64,000 bases of DNA from Escherichia coli. Lineage in GTDB: Bacteria; Pseudomonadota; Gammaproteobacteria; Enterobacterales; Enterobacteriaceae. Positions 7,369-57,403 of the stretch are shown piece by piece. Each line of letters starts with the position of its first letter. The first letter of the stretch is position 1. The translations under genes were made by a program, and so were the position numbers. The notes beneath the pieces are model-generated. The model searched no databases, had not been told where the DNA came from, and worked only from the letters and a program-made list of their open reading frames with translations. Where the stretch lies: assembly GCF_003334405.1 (NCBI RefSeq), contig NZ_QOWM01000013.1; one strand, 5' to 3'.

Positions 7369-7399
7369 TATAAGAAGCTGGTCGCATTGGGTATTCATT

Positions 7400-7483
7400 G
7401 CCTGATGCGACGCTTACGCGTCTTATCATGCCTACGGGAACCTGACCGTAGGCCGGATAAGGCGTACACGCCGCATCCGGCAT
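7400..7483. repeat. REP/BIME element (two inverted palindromic units) downstream of aldB
   Basis: gcctgatgcgacgcttacgcgtcttatcatgcctac ... gtaggccggataaggcgtacacgccgcatccggcat; near-identical to the copy at 56178..56212. Confidence 0.7.
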
Positions 7484-7912
7484 AAACAAAGCGCACGTTG
7501 TTACAATTTACGTTTTAAACCTACGTGCGCAATAACCCAGACTACGCCAACAGAAGTACGTTTCTGGGGCGTGTTTTGTCAGGAGTTTAATCTCGCGTTT
7601 CGATGGTGAGCGGGCGAACCAGGCCGTAAATCACCATTGGTGATCCGAGGCCAATCAGCAATAAACGGTAGATAATTGAAGGTTTAATACGCTTAATCTG
7701 TACTGTGGATGTTTTACTGGAGTTATTCATTAGTTTGGCCAATAGTTCCACTATTTCAATATGATAAACCTCGTCCTGTTGAAAAACCAGACAGCACATT
7801 TAAGAAAGTATATAAAAAACAATATGTCGTTATATAAATAAGGAAATTGCACTGCATCATGGCATTTCATAATATGCGTTAATTGTTCTTTTTTATATTC
7901 TTTGAGGGAAAT

Positions 7913-9378: not shown

Positions 9379-10349
9379 TCTTCGCTTTCCGCCGCTTGTT
9401 CAGGCCGCAGTTGCTGCGACTGAGCAAGCTGGTGGCGAATTTCACGCAGCATTTCATCCAGCACATACTGGACCCGCCAGGGCTGGTATTCCCGTTTACG
9501 GAAGATAGCCACCAGATCCAGCCACCATTCATAGGGTTGCTGAAAGCAGGGCACCAGCGTGCCGTCTTGCAGGTCGCTCTGCACACTTTTGTCTGGCGCA
9601 AACACAATCCCCAGGTGATTTCGTGCCAGCTCCAGCGCAGATTGCGTGTTGTCGCAAACGTAATTTCCCTTCACGCGATAATCCCGCACCTCTTTACTCC
9701 CGGCGACGTTGAAGCGCCAGATATTCGCGTCGTCGATCATCATCGAGTCGATCAAAATACAGGAGTGATGTTCGAGTTCGTCAGGACGGCTAATGGGATG
9801 TTTCTCAAGATAGCGCTGGCTGGCATAAGCGGTTACGGCATATTGGGTAATAAAACTGGCAACCAGCGATTCATCTTTTGGTGGAGCGTAGCTGATTAAA
9901 ACATCACAATCATCAGGAAATTCGACGCCTTCATAAAAGGCATTACGCTCAAGATTGCAGGTTTTTAGCGATAAGGTGATATCACCGATATCTTTAATTT
10001 TATCGATTACATGTTTGGATAAATAGGTAATTATGCCGGTTGGGGCGTAGATGGTGACCCGACCACGTTTCTCATGCTTATAATCTGCAATAAAATTATT
10101 AAGTTGCTCGTTTCTGTCCAGCATGTCGTTGATGTACGGTAACAGCGCGGTGCCAAAAGGTGTGAGCATCAGCTGCCGGGTGGTTCGGTCAAAGACTTTT
10201 AAACCCACTTTTGATTCAAAATCAGCAAGATATTTGCTGACGTTGGCCTGTGCGATGCCAAGTACAGTCGCGGCATGGCTGATATTTTCACTGGCAGCGA
10301 TTACCGAGATAATTTTTAACTCCCGGTACTTAAGTTGTAATTTTGTCAT
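9375..10349 (-). CDS. yiaU: LysR-family transcriptional regulator YiaU
   Basis: 324-aa ORF with N-terminal HTH ([19 protein letters not shown]); 4-bp convergent overlap with yiaV. Confidence 0.85.
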
Positions 10350-16259: not shown

Positions 16260-17537
16260 TTAATTAATCCATTTCAAAGGGAGGATGATGAGATCGGGAA
16301 TAAAAACAAATACGACTAATAATGAATATAAAACCAGGACGTAAGGGAAAACGCCTCTGACTGCATCATCGAATTTGAGTTTTGCCACCCCTGAAATAAC
16401 GTTAAGTACATTACCGATAGGCGGTGTAATTAAGCCGATTGAGCAGTTAATGATAAACATGACACCGAAATAAATCGGATCGATTCCTGCCTCTTTAACT
16501 AAAGGCATTAATACCGGGGTAAGAATTAATACCGTCGGCGTTAAATCCATGACCATGCCGACAATCAGGATAGCCACCATAATGACGATAAACAGCAGAC
16601 GCGGTGAATCGACCAACGGTTGCAGTAAATCAGAAACCATCATCGGCAGTTCAGCAATGGTAATCAGCCAGGCGGAAACTTGTGCCGAGGCCACCAGAAA
16701 CATAACCACTGAGGTGGTTTTCGCCGCGCCAATGAGTACATGCCAAAGTGTGGCGAAGGTCATTTCACGGTAAATAACTGTGGCGACAAACAGCGCATAG
16801 AAAGCAGCAACGGCCCCGGCTTCGGTAGGGGTAAACAGACCGGAGCGAAACCCGCCAATAATGATGACTGGAAGAAACAGCGCCCAGATACCGGAGACAA
16901 AAGAGTGCCAGATTTCCTGCATCGTTGCTTTTTGCTGGCGGGGTAAATTAAGGCGACTGGCCTGCCACCACCAGGTAAGCATCAGCGTTGCGCCCATCAT
17001 CATGCCAGGGGCAATGCCCGCCATAAACAGCTTACTGATGGATAATCCGCTGGAAACGCCGAAGATAATAAACGGAATGGAAGGGGGAATAATTGGCGCG
17101 ATAATGCCGCCAGAGGCAATCAGCCCCGCCGCCCGGTTGACCGGATAGTTGGCGCTGCGCATCATCGGCACCAGTAGAGCGGCAACGGCGGCGGTATCCG
17201 CAACGGCAGAACCAGAAAGGCTCGCCATAATCATAGCTGCCAGCACGCCGACGTAGCCCAGCCCGCCTGGTTTATGCCCCACCAGTTTCATCGGCAGGTC
17301 AACAATGCGTTTTGACAAGCCGCCCGCATTCATGATTTCACCCGCCAGCACAAAGAACGGAATCGCCAGCAGGGAGAAGCTATCGGCTCCGTTCACCAGC
17401 GTTTGTGCCATGATCTGGACATCAAACATGTCCAGCCAGAACATTAACGCCGCCCCGCACAACAACAGTGCCCAGGCAATAGGCAAACCGATAGCAATAC
17501 CACCCAACAGACAGCCCAGAAAAATCAGCACAGCCAT
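16260..17537 (-). CDS. yiaN: TRAP transporter large permease (DctM family)
   Basis: 425-aa polytopic membrane ORF. Confidence 0.92.
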   Translation of the reverse strand: MAVLIFLGCLLGGIAIGLPIAWALLLCGAALMFWLDMFDVQIMAQTLVNGADSFSLLAIPFFVLAGEIMNAGGLSKRIVDLPMKLVGHKPGGLGYVGVLAAMIMASLSGSAVADTAAVAALLVPMMRSANYPVNRAAGLIASGGIIAPIIPPSIPFIIFGVSSGLSISKLFMAGIAPGMMMGATLMLTWWWQASRLNLPRQQKATMQEIWHSFVSGIWALFLPVIIIGGFRSGLFTPTEAGAVAAFYALFVATVIYREMTFATLWHVLIGAAKTTSVVMFLVASAQVSAWLITIAELPMMVSDLLQPLVDSPRLLFIVIMVAILIVGMVMDLTPTVLILTPVLMPLVKEAGIDPIYFGVMFIINCSIGLITPPIGNVLNVISGVAKLKFDDAVRGVFPYVLVLYSLLVVFVFIPDLIILPLKWIN

Positions 17538-20759: not shown

Positions 20760-21233
20760 ATGAACCGGTTTATTATTGCGGATGCGACGAAATGTATCGG
20801 TTGCCGTACCTGTGAAGTGGCTTGCGCAGTGTCGCATCATGAGAATCAGGATTGCGCTGCGTTGTCACCAGACGAGTTTATTTCCCGTATTCGTGTCATT
20901 AAAGACCACTGCTGGACCACGGCAGTAGCCTGTCATCAGTGTGAAGATGCACCGTGCGCGAATGTCTGCCCTGTTGACGCGATAAGCCGCGAACATGGGC
21001 ATATTTTCGTTGAACAAACACGTTGCATTGGCTGTAAAAGCTGTATGCTGGCTTGCCCGTTTGGTGCGATGGAGGTCGTTTCTTCGCGCAAAAAGGCGAG
21101 GGCGATTAAGTGCGATCTGTGCTGGCATCGGGAGACGGGACCGGCCTGTGTTGAAGCCTGCCCGACAAAGGCGTTGCAGTGCATGGATGTCGAGAAAGTG
21201 CAGCGGCATCGGCTACGGCAGCAGCCTGTTTGA
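20760..21233 (+). CDS. ysaA: Ferredoxin-like 4Fe-4S cluster protein YsaA
   Basis: Start placed at ATG 20760 with aaggag RBS (157 aa); multiple CxxCxxCxxxCP motifs. Confidence 0.85.
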   Translation: MNRFIIADATKCIGCRTCEVACAVSHHENQDCAALSPDEFISRIRVIKDHCWTTAVACHQCEDAPCANVCPVDAISREHGHIFVEQTRCIGCKSCMLACPFGAMEVVSSRKKARAIKCDLCWHRETGPACVEACPTKALQCMDVEKVQRHRLRQQPV

Positions 21234-21278
21234 AACGTTTTCCGGCGTTTCTCAACGCCGGAACAGTGCGCTTTGTTT

Positions 21279-21380
21279 ATGCCAGATGCGGCGTAAACGC
21301 CTTATCCGGCCTACAAATTCTTCCAAATTCAATATATTGCAGAAATCATGTAGGCCTGATAAGCGTAGCGCATCAGGCAA
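21279..21380. repeat. REP/BIME element between ysaA and avtA
   Basis: atgccagatgcggcgtaaacgccttatccggcctac ... gtaggcctgataagcgtagcgcatcaggca. Confidence 0.7.
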
Positions 21381-21383
21381 TTT

Positions 21384-22637
21384 TTAGTGACTTTCAGCCC
21401 AGGCTCTTTCTATCTCTTCCGCCAGAATCTTCACCCCCGCCTCAATTTTCTCCGGCTCTGGTACGTAGTTCATGCGCATACATTGATGCGTATGCGGCCA
21501 CGGTTTATCCAGCCCTGGGAAGAAGTTGTGCCCCGGCACCATCAGCACGCCGCGTGCTTTCAGGCGCTGATAGAGCTGCTCGGTCGTAATGGGCAAATCC
21601 TTAAACCATAGCCAGAGGAAAATGGCTCCTTCCGGTTTATGAATCAGGCAGCGATTTTCCGGTAAATAGCGGCGAATGATGGCGATAGTTTCCTGAACAC
21701 GCTGGTAGTAAAACGGTTTGATGACTGTTTCAGACAGGCGCAGCAGATCGTTACGCTTAATCATTTCACACATCATCGCCGGACCAATACCGCCAGGTGC
21801 CAGGCTGATAATGCCGTTCATATTGGTGATGGCGGTGATGATTTTTTCATTGGCGATGATAATGCCGCAGCGGGAGCCAGGTAGACCCAGCTTGGAAAGA
21901 CTCATGCACAGCACGATATTCGGATTCCATAGCGGGCGCGCTTCACTGAAGATGATACCCGGGAACGGGACGCCATAAGCGTTATCAATCACCAGCGGAA
22001 TGCCGTGTTGATTCGCCAGCGCGTCAAGCTTCAGCAACTCTTCGTCAGTAATCACATTGCCTGTTGGATTCGTCGGCCGGGAGACGCAAATCATCCCGGT
22101 TTCTTCGCCAATATGCAGATGCTCAAAATCGACGTGGTATTTAAACTGGCCTTCCGGCAGCAGTTCAATATTCGGACGCGCAGAGACAAACAGATCTTCT
22201 TCCAGTCCGGCGTCAGCATAGCCAATGTATTCCGGTGCAAGCGGGAACAGCACTTTTTTGACCCGACCATCGGCACGGCGTCCGGCAAACAGGTTAAATA
22301 AGTAGAAAAACGCGCTCTGGCTGCCGTTTGTTAGTGCAATATTCTGTGGTTCGATATCCCAACCCAACTTCTCGCGCAGCATTCCGGCAAGCAGTGTGAG
22401 TAGCTCCGTTTTCCCCTGTGGACCGTCGTAGTTACACAGTGCATCAGTCGCTTTGCCACTTTCCAGCATGTCGGTCAGTAGCGTCTGGAAGTAGTCCTGC
22501 ATTTCCGGGATCTGCGCCGGATTACCGCCGCCGAGCATAATCGCGCCAGGCGTGCGTAAACCGTCGTTCAGATCTTCCATCAACAGCGTAATGCCGGAGT
22601 GGCGGGTAAATTTGTCACCAAAAAGGGAGAATGTCAT
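21384..22637 (-). CDS. avtA: Valine-pyruvate aminotransferase
   Basis: ORF track gives 452 aa; start placed at ATG 22637 (MTFSLFGDKFTRHSGITLLMEDL...), giving 417 aa. Confidence 0.92.
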   Translation of the reverse strand: MTFSLFGDKFTRHSGITLLMEDLNDGLRTPGAIMLGGGNPAQIPEMQDYFQTLLTDMLESGKATDALCNYDGPQGKTELLTLLAGMLREKLGWDIEPQNIALTNGSQSAFFYLFNLFAGRRADGRVKKVLFPLAPEYIGYADAGLEEDLFVSARPNIELLPEGQFKYHVDFEHLHIGEETGMICVSRPTNPTGNVITDEELLKLDALANQHGIPLVIDNAYGVPFPGIIFSEARPLWNPNIVLCMSLSKLGLPGSRCGIIIANEKIITAITNMNGIISLAPGGIGPAMMCEMIKRNDLLRLSETVIKPFYYQRVQETIAIIRRYLPENRCLIHKPEGAIFLWLWFKDLPITTEQLYQRLKARGVLMVPGHNFFPGLDKPWPHTHQCMRMNYVPEPEKIEAGVKILAEEIERAWAESH

Positions 22638-25164: not shown

Positions 25165-25989
25165 ATGATTTTGACTCCCATACGACGATATGGGGCGATG
25201 ATTCTTATGTTACTCACTCTGGTGTTTTCGAGTGAGGTGTTAGCGAAGACGCACACAACAACAGCGAGTCAAAAGTCCCACTTAACTAAAGCTAGTAATA
25301 AACAGGTAAGCAGTAAACAAGAGTATTCTCGCAATAGTGCAAAGAGTAGTTCACTTCCTGATTTGCGAAAATACCCTTCCGGAACACCAAGGAAAAAGGC
25401 GTTTCTCCGGACCGTAATGCCTTACATTACCAGCCAAAATGCGGCCATTACTGCGGAACGTAACTGGCTCATTTCAAAACAGTATCAGGGCCAATGGTCA
25501 CCTGCTGAGCGTGCGCGTCTGAAAGACATCGCCAAACGCTACAAGGTGAAGTGGTCCGGTAATACGCGAAAAATCCCGTGGAATACCTTGCTTGAACGCG
25601 TAGACATTATCCCCACCAGTATGGTGGCGACGATGGCTGCAGCAGAAAGCGGTTGGGGAACGTCGAAGCTGGCGCGCAACAACAACAACCTGTTCGGCAT
25701 GAAATGCATGAAAGGACGTTGTACCAATGCGCCAGGTAAAGTGAAAGGGTACTCACAGTTTAGTTCTGTCAAAGAATCGGTGAGCGCCTATGTCACTAAC
25801 CTGAATACGCACCCGGCTTACTCTTCGTTCCGTAAATCGCGTGCGCAGCTGCGTAAAGCGGATCAGGAAGTGACTGCCACAGCGATGATTCACAAGCTGA
25901 AGGGCTACTCGACCAAAGGGAAGAGTTATAACAACTACCTGTTCGCAATGTACCAGGATAACCAACGGTTAATCGCGGCGCATATGTAA
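25165..25989 (+). CDS. bax: Bax protein (putative glucosaminidase)
   Basis: 274-aa ORF recognised as Bax. Confidence 0.85.
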   Translation: MILTPIRRYGAMILMLLTLVFSSEVLAKTHTTTASQKSHLTKASNKQVSSKQEYSRNSAKSSSLPDLRKYPSGTPRKKAFLRTVMPYITSQNAAITAERNWLISKQYQGQWSPAERARLKDIAKRYKVKWSGNTRKIPWNTLLERVDIIPTSMVATMAAAESGWGTSKLARNNNNLFGMKCMKGRCTNAPGKVKGYSQFSSVKESVSAYVTNLNTHPAYSSFRKSRAQLRKADQEVTATAMIHKLKGYSTKGKSYNNYLFAMYQDNQRLIAAHM

Positions 25990-26002
25990 TTGCATTTCCT
26001 TG

Positions 26003-26040
26003 AGCCTTATCCGACTTGTCAGTCGGATAAGGCTTTTTAC
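26003..26040 (+). terminator. Rho-independent terminator of bax
   Basis: Perfect hairpin agccttatccgact / agtcggataaggct followed by TTTTT. Confidence 0.65.
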
Positions 26041-26093
26041 TTTGTCTCAGGCAGTTGAGCTACGAGCCTGAAGCGTTGTTGGTGCGTTTTATC

Positions 26094-26140
<47 letters not shown>

Positions 26141-26184
26141 CCACGCAGCGTTACCTGATGTGACGCCGACAATTCTCATCATCG

Positions 26185-27363
26185 CTACAACATGACCTCG
26201 CTATTTACATCGCGATACTCTTTTGGCGTCGTGTCATATGCTTTTTTAAAAACAGAGTAGAAATATTGCAGCGATGGATAACCGCACATTTGCGATATCT
26301 CATTGATCGACAAGGTGGTTGAAATCAGCAGACTGCGCGCTTTCTCCAGCTTCTCGGCATGAATCATGGCATGGATGGTTTCACCCACCTCTTCTTTAAA
26401 ACGCTTCTCAAGATTGGAGCGCGAGATCCCGACCGCATCCAGTACCTGATCCACTTTAATCCCTTTACAGGCGTGATTACGAATGTAATGCATGGCCTGA
26501 ATAACGGCGGGATCGGTCAGCGAGCGATAATCTGTTGAGCGCCGTTCAATGACGCGAACTGGTGGGACCAAAATTCGCTGTAGCGGCATTTCTTCTTTAT
26601 CTAATAATCGATGCAACAGTTTTGCCGCCTGATAGCCCATTTGCCGCGCGCCCTGAGCGACCGAAGAAAGGGCGACACGCGACAGATAGCGGGTCAGTTC
26701 TTCGTTATCGATGCCAATCACGCATAATTTTTCCGGTACGGGAATATGTAGATGTTCACATACTTGCAGAATATGCCGCGCTCGGGCGTCAGTAACGGCA
26801 ATAATCCCGGTTTGCGGTGGTAGCGTTTGTAGCCAGTCTGCCAGCCGATTTTGCGCGTGTTGCCAGTTCTCTGGCGCGGTTTCTAACCCCTGATAAACCA
26901 CTCCGCGATACTTTTCTTCGGCGACAAGCTGACGAAATGCATATTCGCGCTCAGTGGCCCAACGTTTGCCGCTTGATTCCGGAAGACCATAAAAAGCAAA
27001 GCGGTTAACGCCTTTCTCTTTTAAATGCAAAAATGCGCTTTCAACCAGCGCATAGTTATCGGTGGCAATGTAATGAACGGGTGGGTAACTTTCTGCAAGG
27101 TGATACGAGCCGCCAACCCCAACAATGGGGACGTCGACATCAGCCAGCGCTTGCTCGATCTGTTTGTCGTCGAAGTCGGCAATGACGCCATCTCCTAACC
27201 AGTCCTTGATTTTATCAATGCGGGCGCGGAAATCTTCTTCAATGAAAATATCCCATTCCGATTGTGACGCCTGTAAATATTCCCCTACGCCTTCTACTAC
27301 CTGCCGGTCATAGGCTTTATTGGCATTGAACAGTAATGTGATGCGGTGACGTTTAGTAAACAT
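26185..27363 (-). CDS. xylR: Xylose operon transcriptional activator (AraC family)
   Basis: 392-aa ORF recognised as XylR. Confidence 0.95.
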   Translation of the reverse strand: MFTKRHRITLLFNANKAYDRQVVEGVGEYLQASQSEWDIFIEEDFRARIDKIKDWLGDGVIADFDDKQIEQALADVDVPIVGVGGSYHLAESYPPVHYIATDNYALVESAFLHLKEKGVNRFAFYGLPESSGKRWATEREYAFRQLVAEEKYRGVVYQGLETAPENWQHAQNRLADWLQTLPPQTGIIAVTDARARHILQVCEHLHIPVPEKLCVIGIDNEELTRYLSRVALSSVAQGARQMGYQAAKLLHRLLDKEEMPLQRILVPPVRVIERRSTDYRSLTDPAVIQAMHYIRNHACKGIKVDQVLDAVGISRSNLEKRFKEEVGETIHAMIHAEKLEKARSLLISTTLSINEISQMCGYPSLQYFYSVFKKAYDTTPKEYRDVNSEVML

Positions 27364-53649: not shown

Positions 53650-53726
<77 letters not shown>

Positions 53727-53762: not shown

Positions 53763-53816
53763 CATCTGCAGCTCATGAGGATGAGAACCTCCGGGGGCAG
53801 GGAGGTTCGACTCGAC

Positions 53817-53902
53817 GTAGGCCTGATAAGACGCGTCAGCGTCGCATCAGGCAAATGTGCCGGCCATTGTCGGATGCGGCGCGACCGCCTTATTCGACCT
53901 AC
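53817..53902. repeat. REP/BIME element downstream of proK
   Basis: gtaggcctgataagacgcgtcagcgtcgcatcaggca ... cggatgcggcgcgaccgccttattcgacctac. Confidence 0.65.
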
Positions 53903-56076: not shown

Positions 56077-56112
56077 TTAAAAGCCATACAAGACTGATGG
56101 CAAAGGCAAAAA

Positions 56113-56212
56113 TGCCTGATGCGCTCCGCTTATCAGGCCTACGAAAATTCTGCAATGTATTGAATTTGCACGATTTTGTAGGCCGGATAAGGCGTTAACG
56201 CCGCATCCGGCA
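56113..56212. repeat. REP/BIME element in the dppA-dppB intergenic region
   Basis: tgcctgatgcgctccgcttatcaggcctac ... gtaggccggataaggcgttaacgccgcatccggca. Confidence 0.7.
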
Positions 56213-56383
56213 TAAACAAAGCGCACTTTGTCAACAATCTGTATACCCGGTGGCGCTGTGCCTCTGCGTGCAGCGCCATCCGGCAGCAATACTTCATTCC
56301 CTGTCCGATAAGGGCGGGAATTGATTTGTGAGCAATACAGACACGCAGTTCCAGGCTGCGGGTCACTATAGAGAATCCGGGTT

Positions 56384-57403
56384 ATGTTGCAGTTTATTCT
56401 CCGACGTTTGGGACTCGTCATCCCCACGTTTATCGGTATTACCCTTCTCACATTTGCCTTTGTCCACATGATCCCGGGCGATCCGGTGATGATCATGGCG
56501 GGCGAACGTGGGATCTCCCCAGAGCGTCACGCGCAGCTGCTGGCTGAACTCGGCTTAGATAAACCGATGTGGCAGCAGTATCTCCATTACATTTGGGGCG
56601 TTATGCATGGCGATCTAGGCATTTCAATGAAAAGCCGCATCCCGGTTTGGGAAGAGTTCGTGCCGCGCTTCCAGGCCACGCTGGAACTTGGCGTCTGCGC
56701 GATGATTTTTGCTACGGCAGTCGGTATTCCGGTCGGCGTGCTGGCTGCGGTTAAACGCGGTTCCATTTTCGATCACACAGCGGTTGGCCTGGCGCTGACA
56801 GGTTATTCAATGCCTATCTTCTGGTGGGGCATGATGCTGATCATGCTGGTTTCGGTGCACTGGAACCTGACGCCCGTCTCCGGTCGCGTGAGCGATATGG
56901 TGTTCCTCGATGACTCCAATCCGTTAACCGGTTTTATGCTAATCGACACCGCCATCTGGGGTGAAGACGGCAACTTTATCGATGCCGTCGCCCATATGAT
57001 CTTGCCTGCCATTGTGCTGGGTACTATTCCGCTGGCGGTCATTGTGCGTATGACACGCTCCTCGATGCTGGAAGTGCTGGGCGAGGATTACATCCGCACC
57101 GCGCGCGCCAAAGGGCTAACCCGCATGCGGGTGATTATCGTCCATGCGCTGCGTAACGCGATGCTGCCGGTGGTGACCGTTATCGGCCTGCAGGTGGGAA
57201 CATTGCTGGCGGGGGCGATTCTGACCGAAACCATCTTCTCGTGGCCCGGTCTGGGACGCTGGTTGATTGACGCACTGCAACGCCGCGACTATCCGGTAGT
57301 GCAGGGCGGCGTATTGCTGGTGGCGACGATGATTATCCTCGTCAACTTGCTGGTCGATCTGCTGTACGGCGTGGTGAACCCGCGTATTCGTCATAAGAAG
57401 TAA
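56384..57403 (+). CDS. dppB: Dipeptide ABC transporter permease
   Basis: 339-aa ORF. Confidence 0.95.
   Translation: MLQFILRRLGLVIPTFIGITLLTFAFVHMIPGDPVMIMAGERGISPERHAQLLAELGLDKPMWQQYLHYIWGVMHGDLGISMKSRIPVWEEFVPRFQATLELGVCAMIFATAVGIPVGVLAAVKRGSIFDHTAVGLALTGYSMPIFWWGMMLIMLVSVHWNLTPVSGRVSDMVFLDDSNPLTGFMLIDTAIWGEDGNFIDAVAHMILPAIVLGTIPLAVIVRMTRSSMLEVLGEDYIRTARAKGLTRMRVIIVHALRNAMLPVVTVIGLQVGTLLAGAILTETIFSWPGLGRWLIDALQRRDYPVVQGGVLLVATMIILVNLLVDLLYGVVNPRIRHKK

Follow-up and report, generated by a model that had tools for sequence, protein, structure and literature searches.

REP/BIME elements downstream of aldB, between dppA and dppB and between ysaA and avtA in a 64-kb segment of an Escherichia coli chromosome

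Two near-identical 49-nt stretches, one downstream of aldB and the other between dppA and dppB, are almost certainly copies of a Y-type palindromic unit of the REP/BIME family, in which GTAG precedes an imperfect hairpin of 31 nt, together with a 14-nt BIME flank. As copies of a known REP repeat at gene ends, they make a real but ordinary finding. REP/BIME elements have been known since the 1980s, and the present ones are already catalogued in K-12 as REP266 at dppA and REP268 at bax (the former listed as REPv266b in PMC10100675). We use the Y, Z1 and Z2 units, BIME-1, BIME-2, and atypical BIMEs as defined in PMC3333891, which counts 584 palindromic units in K-12.

A preliminary description of this DNA had read the two stretches as ordinary REP/BIME elements, and that reading is supported by their GTAG/palindrome sequence, their extragenic 3' position, and their inverted pairing with Z1 or Z2 units. 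Three refinements apply. The family was named correctly, but the shared 49 nt comprise a Y unit plus its 14-nt flank and not a bare REP unit. The two sites do share the 49-mer, but they belong to different kinds of BIME: the dpp element is a canonical BIME-1, whereas the aldB element is a chimera of Z2, short linker, Y, and flank. The third is that the aldB and ysaA/avtA elements vary between E. coli lineages.

Genomic context of the window

The window, meaning the whole 64-kb stretch of DNA that was analyzed, aligned over its full length with MG1655 positions 3,698,175-3,762,341, reverse-complemented (99.97% identity). It is a segment of an E. coli K-12-like chromosome, running from rhsA/yibF to bcsG and reverse-complemented. 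Alignment to MG1655 and its annotation confirmed the gene names assigned earlier. The genes next to the repeats are as follows.

aldB: stop codon 7366-7368; the first 49-mer copy lies downstream
ysaA: end 21233; converges with avtA
avtA: from 21384, stop codon 21384-21386 (TTA on the plus strand); converges on ysaA
bax: end near 25989; xylR converging
proK: 53650-53726
dppA: stop codon 56074-56076; dppB starts at 56384, and the second 49-mer copy lies between them

The current RefSeq record of MG1655 lists no repeat features over the REP sites. IS150 at hokA/sokA is common to the window and MG1655. MG1655 and many other strains have a 168-bp segment between proK and the adjacent Z2 unit that is missing from the window (at 53815/53816), which shows that the window comes from a strain other than MG1655. 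In MG1655, this segment consists of a duplicated proK 3' end, a terminator, and a 60-nt filler and carries the RefSeq label 'RtT sRNA'.

A 49-nt repeat occurs three times in the window

Comparison of the window with itself bore out the near-identity of the aldB and dpp sites. The repeat search gave 94% over 54 nt for the pair, positions 7448-7500 and 56178-56230 agreed at 50 of 53 bases, and the 49-mers proper (7448-7496 and 56178-56226) were identical at 47 of 49. The consensus given earlier, GT[A/T]A[C/A]CGCC, put the variable bases in the wrong order; they are adjacent, and the actual form is GT[A/T][C/A]ACGCC (aldB, GT-AC-ACGCC; dpp, GT-TA-ACGCC). A pattern search allowing up to three mismatches found three copies in the window, at 7448-7496 and 56178-56226 on the plus strand and at 21266-21314 on the minus strand. 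The third copy, next to ysaA, is inverted, has two mismatches, and had been under-described. The 49-mer pattern had no match in 100 dinucleotide-preserving shuffles of the window, which rules out chance similarity.

A hidden Markov model (HMM) built from the units and run over the whole 64-kb window identified exactly nine clear palindromic units in five clusters (aldB, ysaA, bax, proK, and dppA), and beyond these nine nothing rose above noise. Related units had been reported after ysaA, bax, and proK, and we located them at 21266-21379, 26105-26139, and 53817-53902, respectively.

The first 35 nt form a Y-type REP unit

The first 35 nt of the 49-mer consist of GTAG (7448-7451 at aldB and 56178-56181 at dpp) followed by an imperfect palindrome with a 2x2 internal mismatch (AA/GC). 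The Y unit folds as (((((((..((((....))))..))))))) at -20.9 kcal/mol, and none of 200 shuffles folded as well. The hairpins reached energies between -18.7 and -21.9 kcal/mol and, compared with shuffled sequence, z-scores between -2.9 and -6.3. Both copies match the E. coli Y consensus GTAGGacgGATAAGgCGttCACGcCGCATCcGGCA (PMC2817692, Table 1) at every upper-case position and differ from it at lower-case positions only. The GTAG tetranucleotide and the stem mismatch are needed by TnpA-REP for binding and cleavage (PMC3333891). The last 14 nt of the 49-mer, TAAACAAAGCGCAC, lie outside the hairpin and are identical in all three copies.

The location is strictly extragenic: the Y unit begins 79 nt past the aldB stop codon and 101 nt past the dppA stop codon, and the third copy lies between the convergent genes ysaA and avtA. 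Rarity in E. coli, location in conserved coding frames, and a missing GTAG or hairpin were each checked and each excluded for the unit.

Open reading frames (ORFs) do run through the repeats, exactly as described before, at 21179-21589 (+) and 56077-56496 (-), and the aldB copy is covered by an ORF of 33 codons with the same MRFVYAGCGV... start. With lengths of 136-139 codons and 31 of 48 residues in common, the two longer ORFs might be thought to encode real small proteins (VRFVYA.CGVNALSGLQ...), a reading to which we give practically no credence. The likeness is confined to the 48 codons that read through BIME-1, outside which the ORFs are unrelated, and the earlier designation of the peptides as spurious was apt. 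One ORF overlaps ysaA and is antisense to avtA, the other is antisense to dppB, and neither is among the annotated MG1655 features of the region. The repeat is, moreover, conserved as DNA in both orientations, with indels in the linker. Where ORFs read through REPs, pseudo-peptides that resemble one another result, and such ORFs should not be annotated as genes.

The dpp and ysaA/avtA copies belong to BIME-1 elements

At dppA/dppB and ysaA/avtA, the 49-mer is part of a larger element, with the following components.

56094-56112 (+): left flank CTGATGGCAAAGGCAAAAA of the dpp BIME-1; consensus GCTGATGGCAAACGCAAAAT, which the search pattern left free
56113-56142 (-): Z1-type palindromic unit, dppA/dppB; HMM E value 3.6e-08
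56143-56177 (no strand): long linker of the dpp BIME-1; Rfam ES036 (RF02751), 56.7 bits (gathering score 37.6)
56178-56212 (+): Y-type palindromic unit of the second 49-mer copy, dpp; HMM E value 4.3e-13
56213-56242 (+): right flank, dpp; TAAACAAAGCGCAC with the extension TTTGTCAACAATCTGT
21266-21379 (-): inverted BIME-1, ysaA/avtA; flank 21266-21279, Y 21280-21314, long linker 21315-21349, Z1 21350-21379

Both elements (56094-56242 and 21266-21379) are single copies in which inverted Z1 and Y units are joined by a long linker, the arrangement of BIME-1 (also called RIB or RIP). They share the order Z1, long linker, Y and are 90% identical over 120 nt, a likeness that the preliminary description had brought out only in part. 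Both match the consensus drawn from 18 other Escherichia copies, and the 49-mer forms the right-hand third of the element. The names 'A' and 'B' for the BIME flank motifs are said to come from Gilson et al. in 1991. When the dpp copy is folded as RNA, its left flank pairs with the distal right flank, so that the whole BIME-1 constitutes one long imperfect palindrome.

The ysaA/avtA linker also matched ES036 above threshold (46.1 bits). On its minus strand, the dpp linker reads ATTCAATACATTG, which agrees with eight of the nine specified positions of the IHF core WATCAANNNNTTR. The exact core consensus is absent from both long linkers, each of which contains a one-mismatch version. Long linkers of this class bind IHF (PMC3333891; PMC2817692 and its ref. 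18). On the basis of sequence, the dpp and ysaA/avtA linkers are expected to do so and the aldB copy is not.

Only 4 nt separate the avtA stop codon (21384-21386) from the Z1 unit, which ends at 21379. Liang, Rudd, and Deutscher reportedly found in 2015 that a REP located no more than ~15 nt from a stop codon can hold up ribosomes at termination and reduce expression. Between the dpp BIME-1 and dppB, a further GC-rich inverted repeat (GGCGCTG...CAGCGCC, 56247-56288) is not of REP type.

The aldB copy lies in a chimeric BIME

The element downstream of aldB has a different left side, as listed here.

7399-7435 (-): Z2-type palindromic unit; GTAG head on the minus strand (the plus strand reads ...GCCTAC); HMM E value 1.7e-10
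7436-7447 (no strand): tail-to-tail linker of 12 nt, GGGAACCTGACC; short, without the IHF-type motif of the long linker
7448-7482 (+): Y-type palindromic unit (GTAG plus imperfect hairpin); -20.9 kcal/mol, z -4.1; HMM E value 2.1e-12
7483-7496 (+): flank motif TAAACAAAGCGCAC
7491-7530 (+): extra hairpin GCGCACGT...ACGTGCGC, specific to aldB; reuses the end of the flank motif, without a T-run

The Z2 unit folds at -14.8 kcal/mol (z -4.6) and is 95% complementary to the Z2 unit at proK. Past the flank motif, a weaker continuation reaches to about 7512, reading GTTGTTACAATTT against the family consensus TTTGTCAACAATCTGA.

This element is neither a BIME-1 nor a BIME-2. Where BIME-1 has inverted Z1 and Y units and a long linker, the aldB copy has Z2 and a 12-nt linker; it shares only the Y-plus-flank part and lacks the IHF-type motif. 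Its Z2 unit is joined to Y by a short linker, as in BIME-2, and the Rfam naRNA4 model (RF02564) gave full-length matches of 39.5, 37.4, and 33.4 bits, all below the gathering score of 59.5. BIME-2, however, consists of multiple Z2/Y copies in tandem, whereas at aldB there is a single pair, with no tandem array, followed by a flank motif that otherwise accompanies BIME-1. Since a single Z2/Y pair with a BIME-1-type flank counts as 'atypical' in the scheme of PMC3333891, the aldB element is best filed as a chimeric 'atypical' BIME (Z2, 12-nt linker, Y, and BIME-1-type flank). O157:H7 shares this arrangement, as does E. whittamii with a linker of only 3 nt; the arrangement therefore predates E. 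coli.

Units at bax and proK

The two remaining clusters lack the flank motif.

26105-26139 (+): Y-type unit between bax and xylR, found by HMM and repeat search; REP268 (PMC10100675)
53817-53902 (-): proK Z2-Y pair; Z2 53817-53853, 14-nt head-to-head linker, Y 53868-53902

The bax Y unit has degenerate Z2-like neighbors at 26066-26099 and 26153-26188. The final CTAC of the latter overlaps the stop codon of xylR. The proK pair is of BIME-2 type, and its positions 53820-53899 are a member of Rfam naRNA4 (RF02564; 69 bits against a gathering score of 59.5).

A terminator-like hairpin at 26002-26035, after bax, has 15 pairs and a T-run and is made up of sequence identical to a Y-unit arm (GTCGGATAAGGC). 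This identity suggests a REP-derived intrinsic terminator.

Proposed function of the units

By analogy with REPs in the literature, the units most likely serve as exonuclease blocks in 3' untranslated regions (UTRs), as attenuators of readthrough, and as protein sites at the DNA level. When the upstream gene is transcribed, they would fold into stable 3'-UTR hairpins, which, from the literature, would halt 3'-to-5' exonucleases and bring about partial termination assisted by Rho. The 3' end of the aldB mRNA would thereby be protected, the dppA part of the dppABCDF transcript would accumulate over the parts for the downstream membrane and ATPase genes, and the convergent ysaA and avtA transcripts would be insulated from each other. 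The dppA transcript reportedly ends at the REP. In double-stranded DNA, the long linkers of both BIME-1 copies may act as IHF sites, which the aldB copy would lack.

Several roles have been ascribed to REPs in the literature. IHF, gyrase, Pol I, and Rho-dependent attenuation have been linked to them (PMC2817692), and REPs have been described as dual terminators and stabilizers (bioRxiv 10.64898/2026.03.23.713779). In tandem gene pairs, the ratio of upstream to downstream expression is higher across REPs (bioRxiv 10.64898/2026.03.23.713779), and convergent pairs with REPs show higher expression (bioRxiv 10.64898/2026.03.23.713779; PMC2817692 and its references). ATP depletion stabilizes REP-bearing transcripts, with dppA and bax in the list (PMC10100675). 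As a counterpoint, terminal REPs are on average not tied to longer mRNA half-lives, and their effects depend on context (bioRxiv 10.64898/2026.03.23.713779). The same 49-mer occurs here in differing contexts, two with an IHF-type linker and one without, and equal behavior should not be assumed.

Stable GC-rich hairpins at gene 3' ends could also be plain Rho-independent terminators that resemble one another by coincidence, a reading we consider highly improbable for these units. No T-run follows any aldB or dpp unit and a terminator scan called none of them, so these units are not intrinsic terminators. Separate terminator hairpins stand beside the REPs of ysaA (21240-21263) and bax (26002-26035), and the dpp element sits inside an operon.

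The Rfam matches raise another alternative, namely that the units are primarily genes for trans-acting small RNAs (naRNA-like and HU-binding, or ES036 RNA) and not cis-acting 3'-UTR elements. The proK pair exceeds the naRNA4 threshold, both long linkers exceed that of ES036, many REPs are transcribed, and nucleoid condensation by naRNA4 and HU has been proposed (PMC4550694). The naRNA4 model was built on the BIME-2 units of REP325, and BIME-2 is a gyrase target. Against this alternative, which seems to us improbable, the best score of the aldB pair (39.5 bits) falls short of the gathering score of 59.5, and no promoter of their own was found next to the units. REP325/naRNA4 also produced no measurable chromosome compaction, and the RNAs were explained as 3'-UTR products (bioRxiv 10.64898/2026.03.23.713779). 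We retain a cis-acting 3'-UTR role as the most likely one.

The repeat belongs to a dispersed Escherichia family

We scanned 100,044 genomes, one per species, for an exact 24-mer covering the Y stem and tail. All but one of the genomes with a match belonged to Escherichia (E. coli, E. albertii, E. whittamii, and unnamed Escherichia species), and each of these had 2-6 exact copies. The sole match outside the genus was a 262-bp contig of 'Desulfosporosinus sp. OT' (NZ_AGAF01000060.1) that consists of an Escherichia-type BIME-1 and is probably E. coli contamination of the assembly. A megablast search with the 53-mer gave 13,653 places in 4,360 genomes, with a median of three and up to eight per genome in E. 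coli.

Full BIME-1 elements of ~150 bp accounted for 20 of 23 independent Escherichia copies. Their consensus runs GCTGATGGCAAACGCAAAAT, Z1, a 35-nt linker (..CTGCAATATATTGAATTTGCA..), Y, and TAAACAAAGCGCAC-TTTGTCAACAATCTGA. Conservation includes the left flank and the final 16 nt of the right flank, neither of which the search pattern had fixed, and this indicates that the repeat really reaches that far. In Escherichia sp. MOD1-EC7003 (locus 9388-9686), two to three BIME-1 copies stand in tandem with a 130-nt period; BIME-1 is otherwise described as single-copy.

These counts bear on whether the aldB/dpp pair could be a private duplication, or the product of gene conversion between two loci, with no dispersed family behind it. 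The identity of the pair is very high (47/49), as such an event would leave it. There is, however, a third copy in the window, each Escherichia genome with the 24-mer has 2-6 exact copies at unrelated loci, and E. coli genomes have a median of three and up to eight megablast places. The likeness also stops at the family boundaries, with different left sides (Z2 and short linker versus Z1 and long linker). The many independent copies refute a private duplication, and we assign it a negligible probability. A dispersed REP/BIME family remains our reading of the pair.

RNAalifold applied to 20 copies predicted a long helix between the Z and Y units, with compensatory changes in 1 of 27 pairs; in these copies, the search pattern itself dictated the right arm of Y. 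Given almost no compensatory changes, the Y/Z structure is supported by sequence conservation and thermodynamics and not by covariation. Their near-absence is what would be expected of young, sequence-conserved repeats and is neutral with regard to structure.

BIME sites differ between lineages

Directly past aldB, similarity to the window breaks off in about 30% of 5,411 E. coli genomes. In the K-12-like lineage, the aldB Z2 unit is followed by the short linker, Y, flank, and then yiaW-yiaT. ST131 has the same Z2 unit, followed by a linker of the long type, two Y units, and a GH127/MFS/AraC cassette. In cS51a, the Z2 unit is truncated and is followed by hicAB and GH127. In Seattle 1946, there is neither REP nor cassette, and aldB abuts sgbE. 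Homology between lineages past aldB ends at or inside the Z2 unit, and the region of replaced gene content is window position 7436 onward. Strain-to-strain variation in the number and type of BIMEs is well documented (PMC3333891; PMC2817692, citing Bachellier et al. 1997).

The ysaA/avtA BIME-1 (window 21264-21383) is likewise polymorphic. It is absent in ST131, where the empty site reads GGAA-TAGCGTA-TTAATGG (ST131 locus 16819-16858). E. whittamii and Escherichia sp. E1V33 have the element at the avtA end. From this one filled/empty pair, ysaA/avtA versus ST131, no target-site duplication can be defined.

The elements resemble REPINs, non-autonomous MITE-like elements mobilized by RAYTs, in that a pair of inverted REPs builds a longer palindrome whose flanks pair, the units have the GTAG head and a mismatch in the stem, and lineages differ in presence or absence. 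They differ in that the window contains no transposase gene: tnpA-REP (yafM) lies outside it, and the MG1655 annotation shows no such gene in the matching region. The association of yafM with REPs is known for K-12 (PMC2817692, PMC3333891). The family may have been spread and reshuffled by this Y1 transposase (TnpA-REP/RAYT), which needs the GTAG and stem mismatch that are both present here.

As the Z2 unit is common to lineages whereas the downstream content and the right-hand partner differ, the Z2-Y-flank chimera at aldB could be the scar of a cassette exchange mediated by REP/TnpA-REP. We advance this tentatively and think it rather unlikely. If it were true, BIMEs would be swap points for accessory genes. 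The position of the aldB BIME exactly at the boundary of cassette replacement is the only mildly interesting lead from the window. The polymorphism at aldB and ysaA/avtA fits the view that REPs tune expression at 3' ends and mark intergenic sites prone to recombination.

Two other features near aldB are irrelevant to the repeat. The first is an ORF at 7587-7730 (-), between the aldB REP and yiaW and outside the REP, that PGAP annotates in many E. coli genomes as a 47-aa 'hypothetical protein' (WP_001066080.1); MG1655 has no gene at this site. The second is a set of IS1 insertions in four strains, whose sites lie near yiaW and leave the REP untouched.
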